Assembly (NCBI GenBank): GCA_963823725.1
Contig: CAWGMJ010000003.1
Location: forward strand, 45,649 to 109,648
Reading direction: 5' to 3'
Source of the DNA: an uncultured delta proteobacterium
GTDB lineage: Bacteria; Desulfobacterota; Syntrophorhabdia; Syntrophorhabdales; Syntrophorhabdaceae
DNA: 64,000 bases
The notes beneath the pieces are model-generated. The model saw only the letters and a program-made list of their open reading frames with translations, had not been told where the DNA came from and ran no database searches. Position numbers and translations under genes: made by a program. Below are positions 3,903 through 63,937 of this stretch, one piece after another (position 1 is the first letter of the stretch; every line of letters starts with the position of its first letter).

Positions 3903-4516
3903 ATGATTGCAAAATTACCAAAAAAACATCTGTTTTGTAAAGGTAAAAAAACAATAATTGCGATTGGCTGGAATTAGCCATATGAGATATGGTAATTTCA
4001 GCGAAATTATGTTCCTTTTCCCTGTATGGATCTTTTTAGCCGGAGCGGCTCTCGTCTGTCTGGCAGGGTCGCTTCAAGGCGGGAAGAACCGTTTTTTCGG
4101 CTATATCTTTGCTCGCTGCAATAAGCGCCGATCACTGACCCTGGTCCCATTTTTTATTTTTCAGCCAGCCCCGGATCGTGGGTTATTTCGGAGACTTCCT
4201 GTTGTTCAGGATAGAACCTTTCGCCTGCAGCGGCCGCTCTTTGCCTATCCGTGTCGGCTGCAGGATCTTTCGCCTGGTTAACCGCACACTATCGCGAGCC
4301 CGCGAATAGTCCGGGTCTTCACTTTATTGCTTCTCGCTATGAGCTTTGCCACGGCAAGCATATTTGCCGCAAATTTACCCTCGATGGTGTTCTTCACTTC
4401 ATTGACATTTCTGGCATTGTTCTTTTTGCGGAAAAAGTCAGGGCTCGGGAATTAAAGAGCATGTACTCAGGTGGAGGGTTGAAAGGCCGTGCCGTATACG
4501 TAAGCGTAGCGTGCTG

Positions 4517-5184
4517 TTACCGCGATCGCGTTACGCCCTTTTTTTCGCAAAAGCCTTCAAGGGGGCATTCGCTGCATTTCGGGGACAGCGGTGTGCAGAT
4601 CCTTTTACCGAACGTGACAAGGAGCGCATTATATATTATCCAGTATTGCTGGGGCAGTATTTTCCGCAGCGTCGTCTTCGGTCTGGTTCGGGTTTCTGGT
4701 CGATACGATCCCGAGCCGGTTTGATATCCTGTGGACATGGGTATCGACACAGATGCCCGGTTTCCCGTATCCTTCGGTGACAACGAGGTTCGCAGTCTTG
4801 CGTCCTATTCCGCGGATAGTCAGCAATTCCTCGATAGTATCGGGAACCGCTCCGCCATAGGTGTTGATTATCACCGAGGCGACTTCTTTGAGTATTTTCG
4901 CCTTGTTCCTGTAAAACCCAACCGGGTAGATAAGCTTTTCCAGTTCTTGAGCGGGTATATCGACGAGGTCCTGCGGGCTTTTTAATGATCGGTATGAGAA
5001 CCCCCATGACTTTTTCGGTCGTTTCATCTTTGTCCTCAAGACTAAGCAGGGTGCCGACAAGGATAATAAACGGGTCCTTTTTTGTATCGCGGGAAAGGCG
5101 CGTAATGACAGGAGCCGCTTCCTCGGGAAACAGCTCGGTCAGTGTCTTCATCATTGTGTCGAAAGGAAATTTATGTCTCATCAT
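4517..5184 (-). CDS. nth: Endonuclease III (DNA glycosylase/AP lyase), 2 frame breaks
   Basis: HhH-GPD region (ELLTIRGIGRKTANLVV...GICVDTHVHRISNRLG) and a C-terminal 4Fe-4S cluster loop (CTPLSPKCSECPLEGFC). Pieces lie in three frames. Confidence 0.85.
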
Positions 5185-5741
5185 GTCGTAAAGCGTAAAA
5201 CGTAAAACGTGAAACGTAAATAGTAAATGCGGATTGCGTGTGAAGTAGTTACGTTTTCCCATCGCCTATCACCCATCTTACCCATTACTATCTCATCACC
5301 CATCACCTCCCTTATCCATAACTGCATTTCATCCGCATGCGATCCTTCCCAGTATACTTTGCGGCATGACGGACAGGTCTTGAACGTCATTATGATGATG
5401 ATAGATATACTCGGGAACAAAGGGTTCTATATCTTCTTTTTCTGACCGCGACCAGGAGAACGTTGCATTCTATGCACCGGGTCATAACCGCGGCTGGATC
5501 TATATATGGTTCTATGTATTCCTTTATTTCCAGGACCTGTTCCCGGGGGTCGTTGCTGTGGACCATAGATGGTGCCGGGACGGCCTGCTTTCGCAGCTGC
5601 TCTTTGTAAAAGAAGAAATGTGTGCCTTCCTTCGGAGGCGGACCGCGGGCTTTCTCCCTGCCGTATGTAAGGGGCGTCAAGCCCCAGCATCCTGAGATAC
5701 CGGGCGAGTTTGCCGAGCATTACGTCGCATATGAAGATCAT
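5181..5741 (-). CDS. Mut7-C (DUF82) PIN-like RNase domain protein, 2 frame breaks, 3' end uncertain
   Basis: N-terminus MIFICDVMLGKLARYLRMLGLDA is typical of Mut7-C. C-terminal zinc ribbon (CIECN...CPSCRKVYWEGSH). ATG overlaps the mtaD stop (ATGA). The last frame runs through repeat 5186-5307. Confidence 0.7.
5186..5307. repeat. Heptamer arrays of two different types back to back (GTAAAAC type, then CCCATCA = GGTGATG type on the other strand)
   Basis: GTAAAGC GTAAAAC GTAAAAC GTGAAAC GTAAATA GTAAATG (5189-5229). Short partner TAGTTACGTTTT (5246-5257). Then CCCATCGCCTATCACCCATCTTACCCATTACTATCTCATCACCCATCACC (5258-5307). Confidence 0.8.
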
Positions 5742-7697: not shown

Positions 7698-7750
7698 GAT
7701 ATTTTTGTACAGGGAAAGGGGGGATGAGTCAATAGAAAAGAACGAAGGAC

Positions 7751-9929
<2,179 letters not shown>

Positions 9930-16863: not shown

Positions 16864-17763
16864 ATGATGGAGCTCATTAAAAATACGAAAATAGATTTTG
16901 TCGGCCTGCGAAAAACAGCGTTTATTATTTCCGCGGTCCTGGTAGCAATAGGGGTCTTCTCCTTCATAATGATATCCCTGGGAAAGGCAAACCTCAGCAT
17001 AGATTTTACCGGCGGCACAAATGTTCAGGTCAGGTTTGCCGAGAAGGTCAACATAGGGGATTTAAGGCACGCCCTTGAGTCAGGCGGGATAAGTGATGTG
17101 CAGATACAGGAAGTAAGCGGAACCCGCGACTTTTTTATCAAGACAAAGCTGTCAGATACGGAGAAGGAATCCGTTGGGTCGAAGATAACAAACATTCTTT
17201 CCACGCAATTGAAAGGCGCGAAGTTTGAAGTGCTGGGAAGCAACATGGTCGGGCCGGGCGTTGGCCAGTCGCTTAAGAAATATGCGATCATCGCAGTGAT
17301 CCTGGCACTGCTCGGAATTATCGTTTATATTGCATGGAGGTTCACGTTCGTATCAGGCATAGCCGCAACGATAGCGACCTTCCATGACGTTCTGGTTATC
17401 TGCGGCGTCTTCTATTTCCTTGGCAAGGAATTCAATCTTCTTATCATTACAGCCTTGTTGACGATAGCCGGATACTCACTCCAGGATACGGTCGTCGTCT
17501 TTGACCGCATACGTGAAAATTCAGCGAAAATGAAATCGCGTGATGATTTCGGGAATATCATCAACGTCAGTATTAACGAGGTCTTGAGCCGGACGATAGT
17601 CACCGGTATCACGACCCTCATAAGCCTTGCGGCCATAATGATATTCGGCGGTGAAGTGCTCTTCGATTTTGCCTTTGCCCTGTTTCTCGGTCTGATCGTC
17701 GGAACCTATTCTTCAATTTTCGTTGCAAGCCCGATCGTATACGCGTGGCGGAAAAAGATTTGA
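16864..17763 (+). CDS. secF: Protein translocase subunit SecF
   Basis: Intact 299 aa. IDFTGGT motif; TIAGYSLQDTVVVFDRIREN. Confidence 0.95.
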   Translation: MMELIKNTKIDFVGLRKTAFIISAVLVAIGVFSFIMISLGKANLSIDFTGGTNVQVRFAEKVNIGDLRHALESGGISDVQIQEVSGTRDFFIKTKLSDTEKESVGSKITNILSTQLKGAKFEVLGSNMVGPGVGQSLKKYAIIAVILALLGIIVYIAWRFTFVSGIAATIATFHDVLVICGVFYFLGKEFNLLIITALLTIAGYSLQDTVVVFDRIRENSAKMKSRDDFGNIINVSINEVLSRTIVTGITTLISLAAIMIFGGEVLFDFAFALFLGLIVGTYSSIFVASPIVYAWRKKI

Positions 17764-17767
17764 GAAG

Positions 17768-19204
17768 ACAGTGAGGAGTGAGGAGTAAATAGTAAGGAGT
17801 TAATTCTTGGTAATTTATTCGGGAAAATAGCTAACAATTTCTACCGGTACATCGGTTACACTTTTCGATTTCATGCTGCCCGGCCTGTTATAGATCTGCC
17901 TCAAGGGCAGTCTTTCGAGAAAATCCTGAATCCTTAGTTTGTTTTCCATGAACCGCCCTATCAGCAGGTCGCAGAAGTATAAATCATACACGCCATCACC
18001 TTTTTGCTCAAGGCCGATATATTACCCGCCAAGGGAACGATTTACAAAAGCAAACTCATTCTTCCACCGGATGCAGGAGTTATTGTGGCTCAAACGCCGT
18101 ACCTGTAAGTGCAGGGGATAATCGAATTGACAGAGCTTCCGGGGCATCGTTCTCGGGGATGATATATAGAGAGATCCGGGTGTTTTCTGGCCCAGGGACT
18201 AATGAGGCCTTATCTAGTTATATTCCCTGCGAGAGTTAACGACTCGTGTGGGCTGTGTACCTTATGTCTTTTTGGGGAGGTATAGTTGCCTCTTCCTTCA
18301 ATGTCTTGTGAATCCTTTCATGATGTGAATATTGCTCTGGGTTTCTGTGTTCTGACTGCTAGGGGTATATGCTGAGACTGACCTACTAGAAGGACAGGGA
18401 AGACAGGCGTGATATCGCATTCGATGCGAAGAGAACCCTGTTACCGCTGCGTATCTTCCGGGGCAGCCCGTATTACTCGAAGAGCCGGGTAAAGCAAAGC
18501 TTCGTCTTCGCAAAGGAGAAAGTATCATGGGCGTCAATCCCGAAGAGGAACCTGGTCTTTATGTTGCACACGGTAAGCGGGTAACAGTAGATGCCGTTTC
18601 TCATCCGGAACTGGCCCTTGTAATAGGAGATTCATATATCGATGGGTTACACTGCAATGGCCCGCGTGCACCCGGGGAGTCTGCGCCTTATTTTCTTCAC
18701 AGGCTTTACGAGGCCATGGCGCTTGAGGATGTCCGATGCGGTGGAGGCGGCGGGAAGGGAGGGATACCGGGAGGACAGACGGGCGAGCATATTCTTGGGC
18801 CCCCACGTGAGGTGTTTCCTTTTCTCCTTCACGATGGCCTCTATGATCTCTTCACCGGTCCTGTGCGGGCAGGAAAGGGGACTTCTCGGCCTGTCCATGA
18901 GGCCTTTGGGACCTTCTGAAAGATATCTCTCAACCCACTTGTACCCGGTCTTTCTGCTGATGTTGAATTCCTGGCATAGTTCTCTAAAGAAGAGATCATC
19001 CTCGAGGTATTCTCTGATAAACCTTTAATTTCTGATCCATATTTGGTAACTCCATTTCATGCCATAGACACCTCCTGAAAGGCAACTATGCATGATACAA
19101 AAAGTGTTACCCATGTACCCGGATTATTTTGTTACCCGGATCGTCTCATCAATCAGCGTTCGTTTGTAATGTAAAATTGTTTTAAACTCCTCACTCCTCA
19201 CTGT
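17768..19204. repeat. Heptamer-array inverted repeat, GTGAGGA type, split by an IS element (arms 17768-17800 and 19186-19204)
   Basis: Left arm ACAGTGAGGAGTGAGGAGTAAATAGTAAGGAGT. Right arm ACTCCTCACTCCTCACTGT is its reverse complement. Lies between the convergent 3' ends of secF and the Smr gene. Confidence 0.85.
17822..19143 (-). mobile_element. Decayed IS481-family insertion sequence (~1.3 kb) with a multiply disrupted transposase
   Basis: Terminal inverted repeats, each a doubled GTGTAACC-N-ATGT-N-CCGG motif (17841-17861; 19104-19143). N-terminal HTH recoverable (MDQKLK..ELCQEFNISRKTGYKWVERYLSEGPKGLMDRPRSPLSCPHRT..KHLTWGPKNMLARL..ASTASDILKRHGL). DDE core and C-terminus (...ERLPLRQIYNRPGSM) survive only as fragments with stops. 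Confidence 0.7.
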
Positions 19205-19879
19205 TCACCCAATTATCGTTATTTTCTTTTTTTGGGGTTTATTTCTCAGAAGGATGTAGGTTGCTCCGGGGCCGCCTTCGGGCATTACGGCATTGGAGAA
19301 TGCGGTCACCCATTTTCGGTGCATGGCCCGTACTATCCATGTTTTCAAGTAGTCTTTGATTATCGGTGCCCTTTTTGATTTCAGTCCTCGCCCGTGGATG
19401 ATCTTGATGCATCTGAGGTTCTTTTTTATAGCTTCGCTCAAAAAATATTCAAAATGTTCGCGGGCGCTTTCGATCGATAGCCCGTGAAGGTCGACAACCT
19501 GTTGTACTGAAAACTCGCCATCACGGAGCTTTTCCATGACAAGGGGGCTCACGCCCTCTGCATAGCCTTCCATGTATTCGGGAAGGTTCGTCACATTGAT
19601 CGTATTGCCGTCTGCCAGAATGCTCTTGAGAAGCCGTTCTTCGTCGCTTTCTTTGCCGGCATCCGACACAATGGGCGTTTCTCTCTTATTGCGGACACGG
19701 TTATCGCGTTTACGGATGGTACGGACATCCTTCATTGCCTGGCTGAACAAAACTTCGTCATCCTCCGGCCGAGGTTCACTTTCGGGAAGCGGCGGTTCCT
19801 TTTGGAGCCGTATATGACGTTCTCTGAGGAATTGAGACAGGTCGGCAAATGGCTTGTTTATCGAATCTTTTCCGTCCAT
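19205..19879 (-). CDS. Smr (MutS2-related small endonuclease) domain protein
   Basis: C-terminal Smr domain: VVDLHGLSIESAREHFEYFLSEAIKKNLRCIKIIHGRGL... Confidence 0.8.
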   Translation of the reverse strand: MDGKDSINKPFADLSQFLRERHIRLQKEPPLPESEPRPEDDEVLFSQAMKDVRTIRKRDNRVRNKRETPIVSDAGKESDEERLLKSILADGNTINVTNLPEYMEGYAEGVSPLVMEKLRDGEFSVQQVVDLHGLSIESAREHFEYFLSEAIKKNLRCIKIIHGRGLKSKRAPIIKDYLKTWIVRAMHRKWVTAFSNAVMPEGGPGATYILLRNKPQKKKITIIG

Positions 19880-22755: not shown

Positions 22756-22779
22756 TCCGGGGAATTGGAAAGATCTTGG

Positions 22780-23043
22780 GTTCAACGTTCAATGTTCAAC
22801 GATCAACGATCTGGGGAGTGAACGGAATGACTCGAACAGATAAGTTACACAATTAGTCCGAGCATTGCAGGTGCAGGCACCCGGCTTGGTAGGTTCTGAG
22901 GCCGAAGATACCCAATAGCTGGAAAATCGCTCAGTTCACGATGTCGTGACACATTTTTTAGTCTACGATGTCGTGACACTTACCACATAGAAAGTAGAAC
23001 AAGAACGTAACGTTTGCACCTTGAACGTTTGAACCCTTGAACT
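22780..23043. repeat. Heptamer-array inverted repeat, GTTCAAC type, with IS-derived core
   Basis: Left arm GTTCAACGTTCAATGTTCAACGATCAACGATC. Right arm ...CCTTGAACGTTTGAACCCTTGAAC. Between the convergent 3' ends of trmI and the LOG gene. Confidence 0.85.
22812..23004 (-). mobile_element. MITE-like remnant related to the end of the IS481-like element
   Basis: GTTACAC-aattagtccgag...cacccggcttggtaggt aligns with the C-terminal/IRR region of the IS at 17841-17900. Also 2 x CACGATGTCGTGACAC direct repeats (22936-22951, 22964-22979). Confidence 0.55.
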
Positions 23044-23048
23044 ATCCC

Positions 23049-34333: not shown

Positions 34334-34345
34334 TTACTTCCCCCG

Positions 34346-34470
34346 CGTCATTCCGGCGAAAGCCGAAAGGCACCACCAAACGTCCGCGAAAGCCAGAATT
34401 TACCACTAAACGTCATTTTGACGAAGAGACTGGGTCGCAATCCGCAATCCACGCCGTCAATCCGGGCCGG
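34346..34470. repeat. REP-like small palindrome motifs (CGTCAWTCCGGSC / CCGGCGAAAGCCG)
   Basis: Copies at 34346-34365 and 34454-34470. The same motif recurs at 36231-36476. Confidence 0.6.
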
Positions 34471-36230: not shown

Positions 36231-36476
36231 CCGTCATCCGGGCTTGAGGCCGTGTCATAATTATTCTCGCCCGGCATACTGAGAAATGCCCGAATCACCA
36301 CGCGACGTCATTCCGGCGGCTTTTTGACATTTTTATAACTGGTTAGTAGAATCCGTAGTTTGCACTGCATGTTTCTCATATGTCATTAACATCATTGAAT
36401 AAAGAAAAACCAAAGACACTGGACCCCGGCTTTCGCCGGGGTGACGGGGTTAGGATTGGCTTCGCCGGGGAGACGG
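36231..36476. repeat. Cluster of REP-like small palindromes
   Basis: CCGTCATCCGGGC (36231), CGTCATTCCGGCGG (36304), CCCCGGCTTTCGCCGGGGTGACGG (36424), CTTCGCCGGGGAGACGG (36460). Confidence 0.6.
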
Positions 36477-38904: not shown

Positions 38905-38928
38905 GCCTTGCCCCCTGTGAATGAATTA

Positions 38929-39011
38929 GTTCAACGATCAATGATCAACGATCAAGATCAATGTTCGATTTGTTAAGAACATTGAACTGTATGAACATTG
39001 AACTATTGAAC
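38929..39011. repeat. Heptamer-array inverted repeat, GTTCAAC type, 'empty' hairpin
   Basis: GTTCAACGATCAATGATCAACGATCAAGATCAATGTTC - ~10-nt loop - GAACATTGAACTGTATGAACATTGAACTATTGAAC. Between the pstB stop and the SPFH start. Confidence 0.85.
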
Positions 39012-39017
39012 TATTTC

Positions 39018-39770
39018 TTACCCATACCTGCCCGTTATATATCCTTCAGTCTGTTCCTCCCGGGGCGAGGTGAATATTTGCGAGGTATCACCGAATTCAA
39101 CGAGAACGCCGAGCAACATAAAGCCGGTGTAGTCGGAGACCCGGGCCGCCTGCTGCATGTTATGGGTAACAATAAGGATCGTGTACCGTTCCTTGAGTTC
39201 GATCATGAGTTCCTCGATCCTCAGTGTGGCAATGGGATCGAGGGCAGAGCAGGGTTCATCGAGGAGGATGATCTCGGGTTCCACAGTGAGGAGACGGGCA
39301 ATGCACAGACGCTGTTTCATTTCCTCTGAAAGATCGAGCGCCTGTGTATGAAGCTTGTCCTTTAATTCTTCAAGAAGCCCGACCGAATGAAGGCAGCGGT
39401 CCACGATCTCTCTCATCGTTTTCCTGTTAGCCATTCCGTGCACCTTAAGCCCGTATACCATGTTTTCATAGATCGTGAACGGAAAAGGGTTGGGACGCTG
39501 AAAGACCATACCGACTTTCTTTCGCAGGTTGATTATGTCGATATCCTGCAGCGGTTCATTATGAATGTAAATGCCGCCTTCTATCCGGACATCTTCCTGG
39601 AGATCGTTCATGCGGTTAAAGCAACGGAGAAGGGTTGATTTTCCGCATCCGGAGGGGCCTATAAGAGCTGTAATCGCCCGGGAATACACATGGAAATCGA
39701 CATCCTTGAGAGCGTGGAATTTCCCGTAATGAAGATTAAGTTTCTCGGTCCTGAGGGCGAATTTGTCCAT
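39018..39770 (-). CDS. pstB: Phosphate ABC transporter ATPase PstB (copy 2; degenerate signature motif)
   Basis: Walker A GPSGCGKST, Q-loop GMVFQRP, Walker B ILLDEP, H-loop VTHNMQQAAR, C-terminus TEGYITGRYG. The signature position reads LSEEMKQR instead of LSGGQQQR. Confidence 0.9.
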   Translation of the reverse strand: MDKFALRTEKLNLHYGKFHALKDVDFHVYSRAITALIGPSGCGKSTLLRCFNRMNDLQEDVRIEGGIYIHNEPLQDIDIINLRKKVGMVFQRPNPFPFTIYENMVYGLKVHGMANRKTMREIVDRCLHSVGLLEELKDKLHTQALDLSEEMKQRLCIARLLTVEPEIILLDEPCSALDPIATLRIEELMIELKERYTILIVTHNMQQAARVSDYTGFMLLGVLVEFGDTSQIFTSPREEQTEGYITGRYG

Positions 39771-50255: not shown

Positions 50256-52211
50256 ATGGAAGAAGTAGATCCATTATTCGGACAATTATCCGGTATCCAG
50301 TTATTCACGCTCTTCAGTCATGCAAGCCATGAGGGAATTCTGCTTCTCGATGACAAAGGAAAGATCGTTTACGCCAATTTGGCCGCGTTTACCATTACCG
50401 GCAGGGAGAAAGATCAGGGAGCAGGTCTCGGGGTCCATGAATTTCTGAGGCCCTGCAATTATTCCGCTGAGCAACGGCTTGATATGGCCATCACCGAAGC
50501 TTTGCCCGTTGCCTCATTGCCGGACAGACCAATCGGGTCAGATAATATCCTGGAACTATCGATAATGGGGAAAGGCGGCAAAGAAACTTCTATAGAATTA
50601 TCTCTTGCCTCCGAAAAAGTCGCAGGAAAATGGCATATCATGGTCTTTTTCAGGGATGTGACCGATAAAATAAAGGCCCGGGAATCCCTGCGAAAATCGG
50701 AAAGGAAATATAGAAAGCTGTTTGAGGATACCAAAGACGCGATTATCATGACAACGCCCGAAGGAAGGATCATAGATATAAACAGGGCGGGCCTGGAAAT
50801 GTTCGGGTACACGAGTAAAGACGAGATGATGAAACTGAATGTGGCCCGCGATCTGTACTTAATTCCCGAGGAACACGCAAGTTTCAGGGCGGGGATCGAA
50901 CGCTACGGGAGCGCGACCATGCACGATCTTTCGCTCAAACGCAAGGACGGAACAATGATCATGGTTTCGGTGACCGTAAATGCCGTCTACGATGAAGTGG
51001 GCGAGATCGTTGTTTTTCACGGCATAATGCGTGACATTACCGGTATCAGGCAGCTTGAACATCAGGTCGAGGTCTATCAAAAGATGGATGCAGTCAGAAG
51101 CTTGATAGGTGACATAGCGCACCACTTTAACAATATACTCAACATCATTGTCGGCAATGCGCAGCTTGCTAAAATATCCCCCGATTGCAGCGATCAGATA
51201 GGGTCCTATCTTTCCAGGATCGAGGACGAGGCTTTCACGGCCGCGGATATGGTCGATGAACTTCTGGCGTCAGGGTGTAAGCACCCGATGGATATGCACA
51301 CGGTGAATATCGTCGACATGGTGGGAGATTTTGAGAAGCTGATACGGAATGTTGTCGGCACCGGCATTTTATTGCTGGTGGCTTTTGCTGGCGAGCAGAT
51401 CCCGGTCAGGTTGGATATCGCGAGAATAGGCCAGGCGCTTCTCAACATCGTCGTCAATGCCCGCGAGGCCATGAACGGGGCGGGCACCTTAACGGTCCGG
51501 ATATATACAGAAGAAATAAAAGATCTTACGACATCGCTCGATGGCCAGATCACGCCCGGTCCGTATGCTGTCGTCTCCATAGCTGACACAGGACGTGGAG
51601 TTGATCGCACCCTGATCGACAAAATTTTCGAACCTTTTTTTACCACAGACACGTCCGGCGAGAAAAAAGGCCTCGGGCTCAGTGTGGTATTGGGGATTAT
51701 CAAGCAACACGGCGGATTCGTAATGTGCGAGAGCGAAGAAGGCAAAGGTGCGGTATTCAAGATCTATTTGCCGGTATCATCTGAAAGATCGAAGGAGCAA
51801 AAGTTTTTAGAAGAGGAAGAAGCGGGCGGCGCGGAAACCATTCTGATAGGCGAAGATGACGAGGCCTTGAGGAAGGTCACGTCAGAATACCTCGATAAGC
51901 TTGGTTATCGTGTCATCATGGCAGAAGATGGCAGGGAAGCCCTTGATATATTCCGGGAGCGGTACGGGGAAATAGATATAGCCCTCATCGATATTGCTAT
52001 GCCGGGCATGGGCGGGCTCGACGCATATCATGAGATAAAGCAGATAAAACCGCGCATTCCCGTATTGTTCATGACAGGGTACAATCTTGAAACCGCAAAC
52101 CTGAAGACGGCAACAGGCAAGGGGGGGATAAATGTGATCCGCAAACCATTCACAATGGCAGCCCTGGCAAGGAAAATAAGGGGAATCCTTGATAGAGACA
52201 GTGAAGAGTGA
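50256..52211 (+). CDS. Hybrid sensor histidine kinase (2 PAS, HisKA, HATPase, REC)
   Basis: H-box IGDIAHHFNNILNII; NIVVNAREAM; DTGRGV; GLGLS. Receiver ILIGEDDE...IALIDIAMPGMGG. Confidence 0.9.
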   Translation: MEEVDPLFGQLSGIQLFTLFSHASHEGILLLDDKGKIVYANLAAFTITGREKDQGAGLGVHEFLRPCNYSAEQRLDMAITEALPVASLPDRPIGSDNILELSIMGKGGKETSIELSLASEKVAGKWHIMVFFRDVTDKIKARESLRKSERKYRKLFEDTKDAIIMTTPEGRIIDINRAGLEMFGYTSKDEMMKLNVARDLYLIPEEHASFRAGIERYGSATMHDLSLKRKDGTMIMVSVTVNAVYDEVGEIVVFHGIMRDITGIRQLEHQVEVYQKMDAVRSLIGDIAHHFNNILNIIVGNAQLAKISPDCSDQIGSYLSRIEDEAFTAADMVDELLASGCKHPMDMHTVNIVDMVGDFEKLIRNVVGTGILLLVAFAGEQIPVRLDIARIGQALLNIVVNAREAMNGAGTLTVRIYTEEIKDLTTSLDGQITPGPYAVVSIADTGRGVDRTLIDKIFEPFFTTDTSGEKKGLGLSVVLGIIKQHGGFVMCESEEGKGAVFKIYLPVSSERSKEQKFLEEEEAGGAETILIGEDDEALRKVTSEYLDKLGYRVIMAEDGREALDIFRERYGEIDIALIDIAMPGMGGLDAYHEIKQIKPRIPVLFMTGYNLETANLKTATGKGGINVIRKPFTMAALARKIRGILDRDSEE

Positions 52212-52404
52212 GGAGCAAATAGTGAGGAGTAAATAGTGAGGAGTGAGGAGTGAGGATATCATTGAAAGACTGCCCTTGAGGCAGATATATAACAGACCGG
52301 GAAGCATGAACCCGGGGAGAGTGTAACCCATGTGTCCGGAATAAAGTGTAACCTATGTGTCCGGACCATACCCTCCTTACTATTTACTCCTCACTCCTTA
52401 CTGT
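52201..52404. repeat. Heptamer-array inverted repeat, GTGAGGA type, with IS-end remnant in the loop
   Basis: Left arm 52201-52256 (GTGAAGA GTGAGGA GCAAATA GTGAGGA GTAAATA GTGAGGA GTGAGGA GTGAGGA). Right arm 52371-52404 (CCCTCCTTACTATTTACTCCTCACTCCTTACTGT). Between the convergent kinase and serA stops. Confidence 0.9.
52259..52364 (+). mobile_element. Solo end remnant (transposase C-terminus plus IRR) of the IS481-like element
   Basis: Translates IERLPLRQIYNRPGSM..., matching the C-terminus recovered at 17880-17940. Followed by doubled GTGTAACC(C/T)ATGTGTCCGG. Confidence 0.7.
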
Positions 52405-52406
52405 CT

Positions 52407-54029
52407 CTACAGATGTATTTCCGTGGCTTCGATCATTCCGTCTATGGCGCGGATGTGTTTCAGGACGTCCGGGCCGATGGGGTCATCGACAGATATAAAC
52501 GCGACTTCCTCACCGCTTTGGATCCGGGATAGACTGAAACTCGCTATATTGATCCCATGATTGCCGAGGATAGTACCGACTGTGCCTATAACCCCCGGCC
52601 TGTCGATGATCTTGAACGCAAGGAATGTGCCTTCAGGTACCATGTCCAGGTGAAAACGGTCGAGAAGCACGATCCGCCCGAGCTTGTCAGGAAAGACGGT
52701 CCCGGCTATGCTGATCTCCTCGACATCGGTTTTCAGATTAAAGATTATCAGGTCATTAAATTTATCGAATGCGTCTGTTTTTGATTCTTCGACAACAATG
52801 TTGCGGTCCTTGGCCAGATAGGGGGCATTGATATATGTTACCGTACCCTGCAGGCTTACTTTGAGAAATCCGTTAAGGCCGGCGATGGTAAAGGGCTGGT
52901 AGCTGAACGGGACGTCAAATTTACGTTCACAAAGGTCTTCCTCGAAATTTTTCCCGACCATCACGACATTTATTTTTTCGGGCCGCCCCTTAGATATCTG
53001 GGCTGCGAACTTGCCTATTTTTTCCGCTACCTTAAAATAGAGTTGGAGATGATCGGGGAGGAGCGATGTCATAAACGGTATATTGACACCGTGCTGATAG
53101 GGCCGTCCGTGCAGGGCATTCAAGACCTGCTCGGCGATAATTGCCGATACGGCTTTCTGGCCTTCTGCGGTGTTGGCGCCTAAATGCGGTGTAACAAAAA
53201 CATTCTCGAGCGCGAGGAATTTTGTATTTGTAGGCGGTTCGTCGACAAATACATCGATACCTGCGGCAAATATCCTGCCTGACACCATGCAGTTATACAG
53301 GTCCTCTTCATTGACAATGCCGCCCCGGGCACAATTAACGAGAATGGCATCATCTTTCACAAGCGCCAGTTTCTCGGCAGTGATCATGTTATTGGTTATA
53401 GCTGTCAGCGGAGTATGGATGGTGATCACATCGGCTGTCTTTAAAAGGTCATCGAGGCTGTCGTAGAGGGTGACGCTCAGTGAGTCGGCTTTGCTTTTTT
53501 TAATGTAAGGATCGTACGCAATGACCTTCATCCCGAAAGCCCTGGCGCGAATGGCGACATTGCTTCCGATACGTCCGAGGCCTATAATGCCGAGTGTCTT
53601 ATTGTAAAGTTCGATCCCCATGAATTTCTTTCTGTCCCATTTTCCATCTTTGAGGGAATTGTTTGCGAGCGGGATCTTCCGGGCAGCAGTAAGTATCTGT
53701 CCCATCGTTAACTCTGTTGCAGCGAGCGTATTTCCTGTCGGGGCATTGAGGACAATAAGGCCCTTTTTACTGGCTGCTTCGATATCGATATTATCGACTC
53801 CGACACCGGCACGGCCGATTATCTTGAGCCGGCCCGGGTTTTCTACGAGGTCTTCCTTTATTGTCGTGCCGCTGCGGGTAATGATCGCATCATAATTGCC
53901 GATGATCTTTTTTAATTCATCGAGCTTTATGCCTGCCTGTACTTCAACTTCGACCTCATTATCCGCCGCGAGTATTTTGAGCCCTTCTTCGGCGAGATGA
54001 TCCGTGACCAAAATCTTGAATTTTTCCAT
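52407..54029 (-). CDS. serA: D-3-phosphoglycerate dehydrogenase (long form with ACT domain)
   Basis: Intact 540 aa. NAD motif GIIGLGRIGS. Catalytic region NCARGG..., C-terminal ASB and ACT domains. Confidence 0.93.
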   Translation of the reverse strand: MEKFKILVTDHLAEEGLKILAADNEVEVEVQAGIKLDELKKIIGNYDAIITRSGTTIKEDLVENPGRLKIIGRAGVGVDNIDIEAASKKGLIVLNAPTGNTLAATELTMGQILTAARKIPLANNSLKDGKWDRKKFMGIELYNKTLGIIGLGRIGSNVAIRARAFGMKVIAYDPYIKKSKADSLSVTLYDSLDDLLKTADVITIHTPLTAITNNMITAEKLALVKDDAILVNCARGGIVNEEDLYNCMVSGRIFAAGIDVFVDEPPTNTKFLALENVFVTPHLGANTAEGQKAVSAIIAEQVLNALHGRPYQHGVNIPFMTSLLPDHLQLYFKVAEKIGKFAAQISKGRPEKINVVMVGKNFEEDLCERKFDVPFSYQPFTIAGLNGFLKVSLQGTVTYINAPYLAKDRNIVVEESKTDAFDKFNDLIIFNLKTDVEEISIAGTVFPDKLGRIVLLDRFHLDMVPEGTFLAFKIIDRPGVIGTVGTILGNHGINIASFSLSRIQSGEEVAFISVDDPIGPDVLKHIRAIDGMIEATEIHL

Positions 54030-58568: not shown

Positions 58569-58574
58569 AAGACA

Positions 58575-58718
58575 GGTTATGGGTTATGGGTGATAGGTGA
58601 TGGAAACACTTTTACCATCAATCTTATTCGCAATTAATAATAGATATAGAGGATTAAGAATTACTCCGGGATAGTTTTGCCGTTCCTATTACCCATAACC
58701 TATTACCCATCACCCATC
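58575..58718. repeat. Heptamer-array inverted repeat, GGTGATG/GGTTATG type, with an unrelated ~80-nt core
   Basis: Left arm GGTTATGGGTTATGGGTGATAGGTGATGG. Right arm CCTATTACCCATAACCTATTACCCATCACCCATC. Between the convergent stops of argC and the UPF0104 gene. Confidence 0.85.
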
Positions 58719-59677
58719 TTCTTTATATCCTTGATGTGCAGATGTTCCTTTATGACGAATATGAAGCCGAGGATGTTGTAGGGAACGTACCACGACGCAT
58801 GAAAAAATATTGCGACCGCGAAGGATTCGTATTTTGGGACTCCGAAGATGCCGAGAAGACTGATAAGGAGGAATTCATATACACCGATATATCCTGGCGA
58901 TGAGGGGACTGCAAGCCCCATGTTTAAGATGGTGCAGACGAACGGGACGTAAATGAACGGCAGCGAAACACCAAATGTCTTGAGGGAAAAATAGAGTGCC
59001 ATTACCATGGAAAACCAGTTGGCAATTGTCAGGACGATGAATAAGGAGAGTCTTCCCGGGGTGCCGTATCCGGCGAAGATTCTCATGGATCTCGAATATT
59101 CTTTTCGCCAGTTTGTTCAATAATGGCATTCCGGTGTTTCTGGAAATAACCGGTAATTTTCAAAGCTATCTTTTCCTGGCTGATGGCAAAAAGCGCTATA
59201 ACGCATATAATAAATATCGTGACGAGGACATACAGGGCCTTTGATACAGATGCGGGAAGGGCCTGACCGGGAAAGAATATAAATGTGATCAAGAGCAGCC
59301 CTAAAAGGTCGAACACCCTGTCGATGAATACCGTTGATACCGCGTATGTGAAAGGGATGTTCATCCGTTTTGACAATGCGTAGCCGCGTGCCACCTCACC
59401 GATGCGGGCAGGCAGGACATTATTGATGAAAAGGCCGATGATAAGGGAAATAAAGGCATCCCGGAAACGGGTATTGTATCCGACAATTCTCATCCACCTC
59501 AGGGAGCACAGGGAGACACAGGTCATGATGCAAGCAGACAGGCAGGAATGCAAATGCGATATCGGCCCGCTTTATGGTCTCTCCAAGCTGCCGGTAATCG
59601 ATTCCCCGCAAAGAAAGATATAAGAGAACGATACTGATGATAAAACCTGCAATTGTGATCAGTCGATGTTTTTTCAT
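58703..59677 (-). CDS. UPF0104/TIGR00374 flippase-like (lysyl-PG synthase TM region-like) membrane protein, 2 frame breaks
   Basis: MKKHRLITIAGFIISIVLLYLSLRGID... N-terminus; INNVLPARIGEVARGY motif. Three collinear pieces. ATG overlaps the EamA stop (ATGA). Confidence 0.7.
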
Positions 59678-61754: not shown

Positions 61755-61844
61755 GGAGGGATGGCTGAGCGGCCGAAAGCGGCGGTCTTGAAAACCGTTG
61801 GGCGTGCAAGCGCCCCGTGGGTTCGAATCCTACTCCCTCCGCCA
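61755..61844 (+). tRNA. tRNA-Ser (anticodon UGA), CCA encoded
   Basis: Manual fold: acceptor GGAGGGA/TCCCTCC, anticodon loop CTTGAAA, long variable arm (class II), T-arm GTGGG-TTCGAAT-CCTAC. Confidence 0.9.
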
Positions 61845-61853
61845 TATTTTCCC
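61820..61853 (+). repeat. attL-like direct repeat (tRNA-Ser 3' end plus 9 nt)
   Basis: GGTTCGAATCCTACTCCCTCCGCCATATTTTCCC is identical to 63904-63937. Confidence 0.85.
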
Positions 61854-63003: not shown

Positions 63004-63903
63004 TATCACTTCTCTTGATATAACTCTCTTATTCTATTTTGATAAATATCAGGGGAACCACCACTCGATCCTGCAGGGATATATACTTGTTTTGACAGTT
63101 CAACTGCCAATGTGGCCCGATTAGCGCCCCGGCACCCCAATAAACTAGAATACCGGAGAATCTCATGGGCGAGTATAGGCCGAGTTCAAACAGTACTTGA
63201 ACCCATTTCAACCTCCCTGAGAGCCGGGTTACGATGTTACATGCTAGCCTATAGGTAAGCTATCGATGGGCCGGACCGAGATTACCCTCTGTCTGCCGAT
63301 ACCAGGATGAAATATAATGCAAGGGGTTCGAAGCACTGTCGGAAAGGCCGAACCGTCCAGGTCTTTAATGGCGCGGCTGTGGCATGTCCCTGGTCGATTG
63401 CAGGAACGATGGAAGTTATCATCGTATCGGGCAACGCGGTTATGCAGAATGCTTGACGGCTACATGACAAGGCAGCATTCTGATGATCGAATTGGGTTTG
63501 CCGGTCGGAAGATTTACACACCAGAAACGGATGACGGATGGCCCAAAACGTTTTCACCCGTGGGCTCACTTTATAAATGAGATTGTCAAAGCCTGAAACG
63601 CTCGAGATGAAGAAACGGTATCCATCCGTCAAGGATGGCGCAGTCTTATGTGGCTCACGGCGCCTTGGTCGGTAGCATCACCATTCCCGTGACGAGCGTG
63701 GAAAACCGGCAGTAAATCGATAGGGTATGAATGAGGCCCAGATGGTAACTGAATGGCCTTTAGACCTGAGCGATTAGTATGGCGGTGGCGCCGGGCAACG
63801 AAGAATTTGACAAATTTTTAATAAGAAAATATGCTATAAAAATATCCGGGCCGTCAGCGGGCCGTGAATCCTTGAAAATGCTTTGTAACACTGAAGGTGA
63901 GTT

Positions 63904-63937
63904 GGTTCGAATCCTACTCCCTCCGCCATATTTTCCC
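63904..63937 (+). repeat. attR-like direct repeat (orphan tRNA-Ser 3' fragment)
   Basis: 34/34 identity to 61820-61853. Weaker similarity extends back to a CTTGAAAA anticodon-loop-like string at ~63871. No 5' acceptor half, so not a functional tRNA. Confidence 0.85.

Follow-up and report, generated by a model that had tools for sequence, protein, structure and literature searches.

Decayed copies of an insertion sequence (IS) lie in hairpins of tandem 7-nucleotide (nt) units at gene 3′ ends in a 64,000-nt stretch of DNA from an uncultured delta proteobacterium of the Syntrophorhabdaceae (contig CAWGMJ010000003.1, positions 45,649 to 109,648; hereafter the window). We put the probability that sequence-directed targeting by a lineage of the IS481 family explains their presence in these hairpins at roughly 75%. 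As judged from aligned junctions, the target determinant is most likely not the hairpin loop but a YYTWAC core located some 8 nt beyond the end of the element's right terminal inverted repeat (IRR). The largest copy occupies a 1.44-kb spacer with the SecF stop codon on one side (gene at 16864-17763, plus strand) and, on the other, that of an Smr-family gene converging on it (19205-19879, minus strand). The spacer is made up as follows:

17765 to 17800, plus strand: left hairpin arm on the IRR side, consisting of the foot AGACAG and the units TGAGGAG, TGAGGAG, TAAATAG and TAAGGAG, and beginning 2 nt past the SecF stop codon.
17801 to 17810, unstranded: residual loop or spacer, some 10 nt long, separating the arm from the decayed tip of the IRR, extrapolated from the end of the BLASTN match, with a boundary good to a few nt either way.
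17811 to 19158, minus strand: decayed full-length IS481-family insertion sequence of about 1.35 kb (colinear BLASTN; NCBIfam IS481).
17817 to 17865, minus strand: IRR, a doubled subterminal repeat with the inner unit (17844-17861) intact and the outer unit (about 17817-17840) decayed.
17857 to 19024, minus strand: transposase pseudogene whose frame shifts once, near 18270, and is broken by about 10 in-frame stops (tblastn and three-frame translation).
19104 to 19143, minus strand: left terminal inverted repeat (IRL), a doubled subterminal repeat with its inner unit at 19104-19122 and its outer unit, which has an internal deletion, at 19129-19143.
19159 to 19185, unstranded: residual loop from the IRL tip to the right arm, extrapolated.
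19186 to 19204, plus strand: right hairpin arm, ACTCCTC repeated 2.4 times plus the foot CTG, which is the complement of two GTGAGGA units and abuts the Smr stop codon.

Three intact copies from other contigs (L001, L002 and L006) aligned colinearly by BLASTN to 17817-19136 at 70-82% nt identity, and we extrapolated this span to the element tips to obtain the limits 17811-19158; the most distant relatives, L064 and L073, matched the window IS at 64-66% nt identity. Because it is colinear with intact copies and carries stops and a frameshift, we regard the element as full length but dead. The closest intact protein, P0001 (402 amino acids (aa), 83% identity), matched the window by tblastn in two blocks, residues 14-268 in frame -1 (83%, 6 stops) and residues 263-402 in frame -2 (77%, 4 stops). 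The pseudogene hit the NCBIfam model NF033577 (IS481) with E = 2.6e-35 and 122 bits, the next-best family profile being IS630 at 3.7e-9, with IS3 and ISNCY also far behind, and it contains the Pfam domains LZ_Tnp_IS481 (PF13011) and a helix-turn-helix (HTH); intact relatives carry rve domains (PF00665/PF13683). Against the curated equivalog cutoff of 224 bits, P0001 scored 222.2, P0002 218.3 and the L007 copy 230.6, and on these scores we assign the element to the IS481 family, at the edge of the curated model. A sequence-only reading of the window had described a decayed IS481-like element of about 1.3 kb between GTGAGGA arms; both the profile match and BLASTN bear this out, with the limits widened from 17841-19143 to about 17811-19158. 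The arm pair of this hairpin (17765-19204) folds with a free energy (dG) of -21.3 (z = -9.8).

The same reading had proposed doubled terminal repeats, and in intact copies the unit CGGGTACATRGGTAACA indeed occurs twice at IRL and the unit GTGTAACCNNRGTACCCGG twice at IRR; the window copy has kept the inner units, the outer ones having decayed. More than 25 copies share the inverted termini (IRL TGAYCGAACGGGKACATRGGTAACA versus IRR ...GTAACCYATGTACCCGGAYCATACC), and collapsed-repeat contigs begin and end exactly at these terminal inverted repeats. A 3-bp target-site duplication (TSD) was present in 5 of 28 copies, namely all three of the long-contig copies (L007, L008 and L014) plus L053 and L092. 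The tetranucleotide TACC at the IRR tip was considered as a target or TSD and rejected; since it is always absent from the IRL side, it belongs to the IS.

When seven IS copies were compared with the whole window by BLASTN, IS-derived DNA was confined to heptamer hairpins. It was found in 4 of 7 hairpin spacers (three firmly, one weakly), among about 39 intergenic spacers of at least 40 nt. An earlier count of four occupied palindromes out of eight thus holds for the four, one of them weakly, and the loci number seven, or eight if two unlike arrays at 5182-5300 are counted apart. The three copies other than the full-length one are:

7798 to 7889, minus strand: solo IRR remnant, supported by BLASTN at 7798-7835 (E = 0.005) and by alignment to about 7889, with its tip GGTATGATCC 0 nt from the CGTAAGG-type left arm at 7745-7797.
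52245 to 52372, plus strand: solo IRR remnant (E = 1.6e-35) with both subterminal repeats and the last 27 transposase codons (89% aa identity), whose tip ...CCGGACCATACC ends at 52372, 0 nt from the right arm 52373-52408.
22823 to 22894, minus strand: fourth IRR-type remnant, strongly decayed, about 10 nt from the left arm of a GTTCAAC-type hairpin (arms 22778-22812 and 23004-23045).

The first two had been recognized as solo ends from the letters alone, at 7806-7889 and 52259-52364. At its 5′ edge the 52245 remnant merges with the left arm (52196-52256) in a GGA microhomology, for which reason we read this edge as a deletion junction. For the fourth remnant, 22823-22860 aligned to the IRR end with a local alignment score of 31, which 0 of 300 shuffles reached, and its alignment with 7798-7883 gave P = 0.001. 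The interval 22812-23004 had been called MITE-like (miniature inverted-repeat transposable element), a description that we reject, as the interval has no terminal inverted repeats and the best inverted alignment of its halves scores 14 (P = 0.78); only its left part is IRR-like, and its right-hand doubled 20-mer does not resemble IRR. On these alignments the interval is a fourth decayed IRR remnant together with unrelated DNA. The 20-mer itself is a direct repeat within the loop of the GTTCAAC hairpin, AGTyyACGATGTCGTGACAC, at 22933-22952 and 22960-22979 (spacing 27 nt), and showed no significant similarity to the IS ends.

The heptamer GTGAGGA occurs 15 times in the window, compared with 6.1 expected, a count reached in 0 of 100 shuffles. 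A period-7 autocorrelation detector reported eight arrays in the window versus 0-1 in shuffles, and Tandem Repeats Finder listed the same arrays. The seven hairpin loci (5182-5300, 7745-7943, 17765-19204, 22778-23045, 38927-39018, 52196-52408 and 58571-58720) all adjoin a gene 3′ end, four of them between convergent genes. Except at 5182-5300, the arms pair into folds much more stable than those of shuffles (z = -5 to -10). Three loci are free of IS DNA:

38927 to 39018, unstranded: unoccupied heptamer hairpin of the GATCAAC type with a loop of about 10 nt (fold z = -6.1) and no IS similarity.
58571 to 58720, unstranded: unoccupied heptamer hairpin of the GGTGATG type with a loop of about 80 nt and no IS similarity.
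5182 to 5300, unstranded: two adjacent non-complementary heptamer arrays, CGTAAAA type followed by CCCATCA type, folding like shuffles (z = -0.9) and with no IS remnant.

The CCCATCA-type array of the last locus is complementary to the arm at 58586-58609 and not to its CGTAAAA-type neighbour, half-hairpins from different families here standing side by side. The arrays begin a few nt past stop codons, after a short foot (AGACC, AGACAG or GACG). An Rfam scan of the whole window returned two tRNAs only, with neither the hairpins nor the IS matching a known structured RNA, and a literature search for heptamer-array hairpins found nothing on target. We also rejected the idea that the arrays are 7-bp TSDs or excision footprints, since the flanking repeats are inverted and not direct, and the TSDs seen measure 3 bp.

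Outside the window, the IS subclade is joined to heptamer arrays at about 12 independent junctions. In the close subclade every readable junction touches such an array, with unit sequences that differ by locus, and the array-joined copies include both intact and decayed ones (L001-L003, L006, L026/L101, L029, L034, L035 and L126). The nearest relatives, both decayed, come from an uncultured Syntrophorhabdus metagenome-assembled genome (L026, 90%; L029, 81%), and orthologues of the flanking genes carry Syntrophorhabdaceae names at NCBI. Ten unique heptamer-context junctions were available in addition to L126, and in most the IRR lies 0-2 nt from the array:

L001, L003 and L004: junction with a (GGCTAAC)n array.
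L002: 8 nt, then GGCTAAC three times, which is the 5′ arm of a complete hairpin; the IS lies outside the hairpin.
L006: arrays on both sides.
L034 and L035: junction with a (GCCTTAC)n array.
L101 / L026: the two ends of the IS are 0-2 nt away from GTAAAxx arms that are complementary to each other.
L029: flanked left and right by heptamer arms.
L126, an intact copy on a 94.7-kb contig: GTGAGGC-type left arm, 95-nt loop, IS, and a solo IRR stub of 75 nt, its tip directly next to (CTGTTTA)x4.

At the last of these (L126:4257-4339) the intact IS is followed directly by the 75-nt stub of the same IS and then by the heptamer arm, an arrangement that suggests a collapsed tandem dimer or a site used more than once.

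Across 41 unique right flanks, drawn from the other contigs and the window, the motif YWAC stood exactly at +12..+15 past the IRR end in 24 cases, against a background of 1.2% per position (binomial P = 1.7e-35), and in most of the remaining junctions it was shifted by 1 nt. In heptamer contexts, positions +9..+15 correspond to the second array unit (ATTTTAC, GCCTTAC, CTCTTAC or TATTTAC). The relatives of 58-66% identity, in whose flanks no heptamer arrays were seen, have on the right 8 nt, then RYYTAAC (GCCTAAC, GGCTAAC, TTCTAAC and others), and an imperfect palindrome ending in GTTRRRY. At L007-L015, L022, L025, L036-L064 and L092, the distance from the IRR tip to the RYYTAAC box 3′ of it is exactly 8 nt, rarely 7 or 9. 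These relatives belong to uncultured Chloroflexi, Desulfobacterota and Nitrospirota, and at the Chloroflexi loci copies of the RYYTAAC...GTTRRRY repeat follow one another on one strand at intervals of 0.6-1.2 kb, as they would in a cassette array. We take this flank anatomy to be that of an integron attC site, as in the 59-base element of aadA1, and from their folds, core positions and cassette-like periodic recurrence the RYYTAAC boxes look like the R″ cores of attC sites; a crude 12-mer partner search for the R′ boxes gave 3 of 26 and was uninformative. The window copies are not at attC, their flanks being heptamer arrays between housekeeping genes.

Heptamer arrays are present in Syntrophorhabdaceae loci. 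In 157 kb of flanks of the distant relatives none was found at the threshold that yields eight in the window, and a threshold one step lower gave three marginal matches. One heptamer array, GTTAGGC repeated three times, is identical to the attC R′ consensus. Taking the junctions together, a single rule probably covers both contexts, by which a YYTWAC core follows the IRR tip at a distance of about 8 nt. The proposal of the sequence-only reading that the IS targets the palindrome is thus supported by the array-joined copies elsewhere, with several insertions at the same relative position and empty versions of occupied sites, and has to be amended as to the determinant: since the L002 copy sits outside a complete hairpin, 8 nt 5′ of the first GGCTAAC unit, the loop itself does not appear to be the target.

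Orthologous spacers from related genomes allowed us to compare occupied and unoccupied versions of the same sites. At the SecF/Smr spacer, L116 (Smr 82%) has 33 nt with a one-unit hairpin and no IS, L114 (87%) has AAGACC-GTTAGGC x3 followed by a different dispersed repeat, and L117 (79%) has a SecF-side arm, CAAACAG-TAAATGG-TAAGGTG-TAAGCAG, that is homologous to the window arm, again with no IS. At the SerA spacer, which is the window's 52200 locus, L121 (89%) has 7 nt and no array, L122 (93%) has GTGAACA-GTAAATA-GTAAGCG-GTTAGCG-GTAAGAA and no IS, and L125 (86%) has GGTAATA-GGTAATG, an array without IS. Because orthologous spacers are empty or differently filled, the heptamer arrays are, on this comparison, local to gene 3′ ends, change fast and occur where the IS is absent. 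Orthologous gene ends in close relatives carry 0 to 8 heptamer units of differing sequence, and array loci in these relatives lie at L114:3679-3713 and 1690-1802, L116:3673-3705, L121:4121-4131, L122:1786-1830, L125:4124-4150, and L126:2783-2817 and 4334-4378.

We propose that many host genes end in hairpins of tandem 7-nt units, GTRANNN in the 5′ arm and NNNTYAC in the 3′ arm, whose arrays would arise and change locally, and that an IS481-family lineage with a single-open-reading-frame (ORF) DDE transposase, doubled subterminal binding-site repeats and a 3-bp target duplication chooses its target by sequence. Insertion would leave a RYYTAAC/YYTTAC core about 8 nt beyond the IRR (...CCGGAYCATACC). 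For most hosts this core would be the R″ box of integron attC sites, and in the Syntrophorhabdaceae subclade ..CTTAC/..CTAAC heptamer units would serve in its place. Because in an ordinary hairpin of this kind only the 3′ arm, on either strand, has the polarity of the core, the IS would land in the loop with its IRR against the arm; both orientations are seen, with 52372 on the plus strand and 7798, 17811 and 22823 on the minus strand. The window would then preserve four old insertions, one full length and dead, and three trimmed from the IRL/loop side to IRR stubs. We infer that the transposase reads the core, possibly since the core resembles its own GTGTAAC binding repeat. The stubs may have persisted because a deletion running into the arm would harm a 3′ hairpin that is under selection.

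Several observations weigh against sequence-directed targeting. No TSD is recognizable at the window copy or at L126, and short metagenome contigs without a TSD may be chimeric across the repeat, in which case their left/right pairing is unreliable, the single junctions being real. TTAC recurs every 7 nt in the arrays and the match at +12..+15 is automatic once the IS abuts in a fixed phase, so that in heptamer contexts the independent information is the abutment itself. Three junctions fit loosely, namely L006, with a core-like ATACAAC at +10, the window junction at 17811, with TTAC at about +15..+18 and a decayed tip, and the window junction at 22823. Finally, the IRR-proximal arms at 17765-17800 and 52373-52408 are identical at 34 of 36 positions, with four variant units and a foot in the same order, beside IS ends that are only about 65-85% identical. 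This near-identity, which had already been noticed for the 17768 and 52404 loci, is the argument for a composite element in which the arms, or one arm, travel with the IS, the other option raised from the letters alone. We consider a composite element very improbable, because homologous arms without the IS stand at orthologous loci (L117 and L122), L121 has no arm, flanking unit sequences vary by locus, and unoccupied hairpins exist; moreover, among copies that all encode the same transposase, P0002, the IRR meets the array in four different junctions and phases. Our best guess is that the two arms belong to one array family or were homogenized by gene conversion.

A different account would have the IS insert nearly at random and survive only in dispensable 3′-end spacers, which here happen to be filled by hairpins. 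All hairpins do abut gene 3′ ends, mostly convergent ones, where insertions should be least harmful, and other mobile repeats also gather in loops (L114 and L117). Passive retention of this kind nevertheless leaves the precision of the junctions unexplained, as the IRR tip, always IRR and never IRL, lies 0-2 nt from the array in most cases, and it likewise fails to account for the fixed 8-nt offset from the attC R″ box in about 20 independent sister-clade insertions; about 32 other spacers of the window carry no remnant, and we think it unlikely. We are equally doubtful that the element recognizes the structure of the hairpin loop or stem-loop junction, as IS1397 does at loops of repetitive extragenic palindromic (REP) sequences, and not a sequence core. 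Most close-subclade copies do lie between two arms (the four in the window, L006, L029, L101 and L126), and attC sites and heptamer hairpins are both imperfect palindromes able to extrude. However, the L002 copy lies outside a complete hairpin, L035 and L001 have arrays on the IRR side only, and the IS sits 8 nt outside the 5′ stem foot at attC but inside the loop at heptamers, with the YYTWAC offset the same in both. It is also conceivable, at long odds, that the arrays and the IS lineage are a co-evolving pair, in which a transposase or recombinase acting on core-like units creates, expands or homogenizes arrays and the lineage has switched from attC to a host-specific pseudo-attC landscape. 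The basis for this idea is that the units (GTTAGGC, GTAAGGC / GCCTAAC-like) mimic both attC cores and the GTGTAAC binding repeat of the IS, and, if true, it would explain the 34/36-identical arms and the fast turnover of units at orthologous gene ends.

Two further repeats were observed in the window. A second dispersed repeat, GTCATTCCGGC...GCCGGGATGAC (in some copies with ...ATTGTAACACAGTCTC), is found at 34343-34365 and 36427-36449 and also in hairpin loops of related genomes; copies elsewhere lie at L002:1-36, L114:3795-3856, L117:6520-6590 and L118:3775-3810, and it may be another small mobile element using the same spacers. In addition, the 3′ end of a tRNA (61755-61841) is repeated, 61817-61853 recurring at 63901-63937 (37 nt, 97%) 2,084 nt downstream, where Rfam calls no second tRNA; a small element that integrates into a tRNA gene leaves repeats (attL/attR) in this arrangement. 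For annotation, the association of the IS with heptamer arrays explains assembly breaks at gene 3′ ends in Syntrophorhabdaceae, and the heptamer-array hairpins form a lineage-specific repeat system that deserves its own description.

Known IS that target REP sequences include IS1397 and ISKpn1 (IS3 family), ISPsy8, ISPpu9/10, ISPa11 and IS621, and the families in the survey of these elements are IS3, IS110, IS4, IS256 and IS5, with IS481 not among them (Tobes and Pareja, 2006; PMC1525189). The lineage described here resembles them in that its copies lie almost only in extragenic palindromic repeats of the host, the target duplication, where visible, is short, and occupied and empty palindromes coexist; with IS1397, ISKpn1 and ISPsy8 it also shares an rve-type DDE domain and an N-terminal HTH/leucine-zipper region. 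It differs in that its targets are tandem heptamer arrays and not classical REP sequences, in that its position appears to be set by a core about 8 nt past the IRR and not by the loop centre, and in that its sisters lie at attC-like sites.

The location of the 58-66% relatives at attC-like sites in cassette arrays recalls the two kinds of attC-specific element that a literature search brought up, the IS1111-attC elements of the IS110 family and the group IIC-attC introns, which insert within attC. The machinery is different, IS1111-attC using a DEDD transposase and a guide RNA and group IIC-attC introns a ribozyme and reverse transcriptase, and so is the position, since the relatives of the window lineage lie 8 nt 5′ of R″ and the window copies are not at attC at all. 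A search of the literature on attC targeting by the IS481 family found no report of an IS481-type or DDE IS with this target; such an element would affect the disruption and rearrangement of cassette arrays. IS481 itself makes a 6-bp TSD and prefers NCTAGN. Like IS481, IS1002 and their relatives, the window lineage has a single long ORF with HTH, LZ_Tnp_IS481 and rve domains, terminal inverted repeats and a length of about 1.0-1.35 kb, but unlike IS481 proper it has scores that straddle the model cutoff (218-231 versus 224), subterminal repeats that are doubled at both ends, a TSD of 3 bp where one is visible, and an apparent target specificity that is strong and different.

In cyanobacteria, short tandemly repeated repetitive (STRR) heptamers reportedly contain nested small mobile elements, the small dispersed repeats (SDRs). 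There too, tandem 7-nt intergenic repeats form hairpins in which small mobile DNA preferentially lands, but in another phylum, with other unit sequences and with tiny SDRs inserted in place of a DDE IS. IS that target extragenic palindromes are a known kind, and the behaviour seen in the window most likely belongs to it; new are the family, the simple positional rule and the two classes of target. It would add IS481 to the short list of IS families with a strict preference for structured extragenic repeats.

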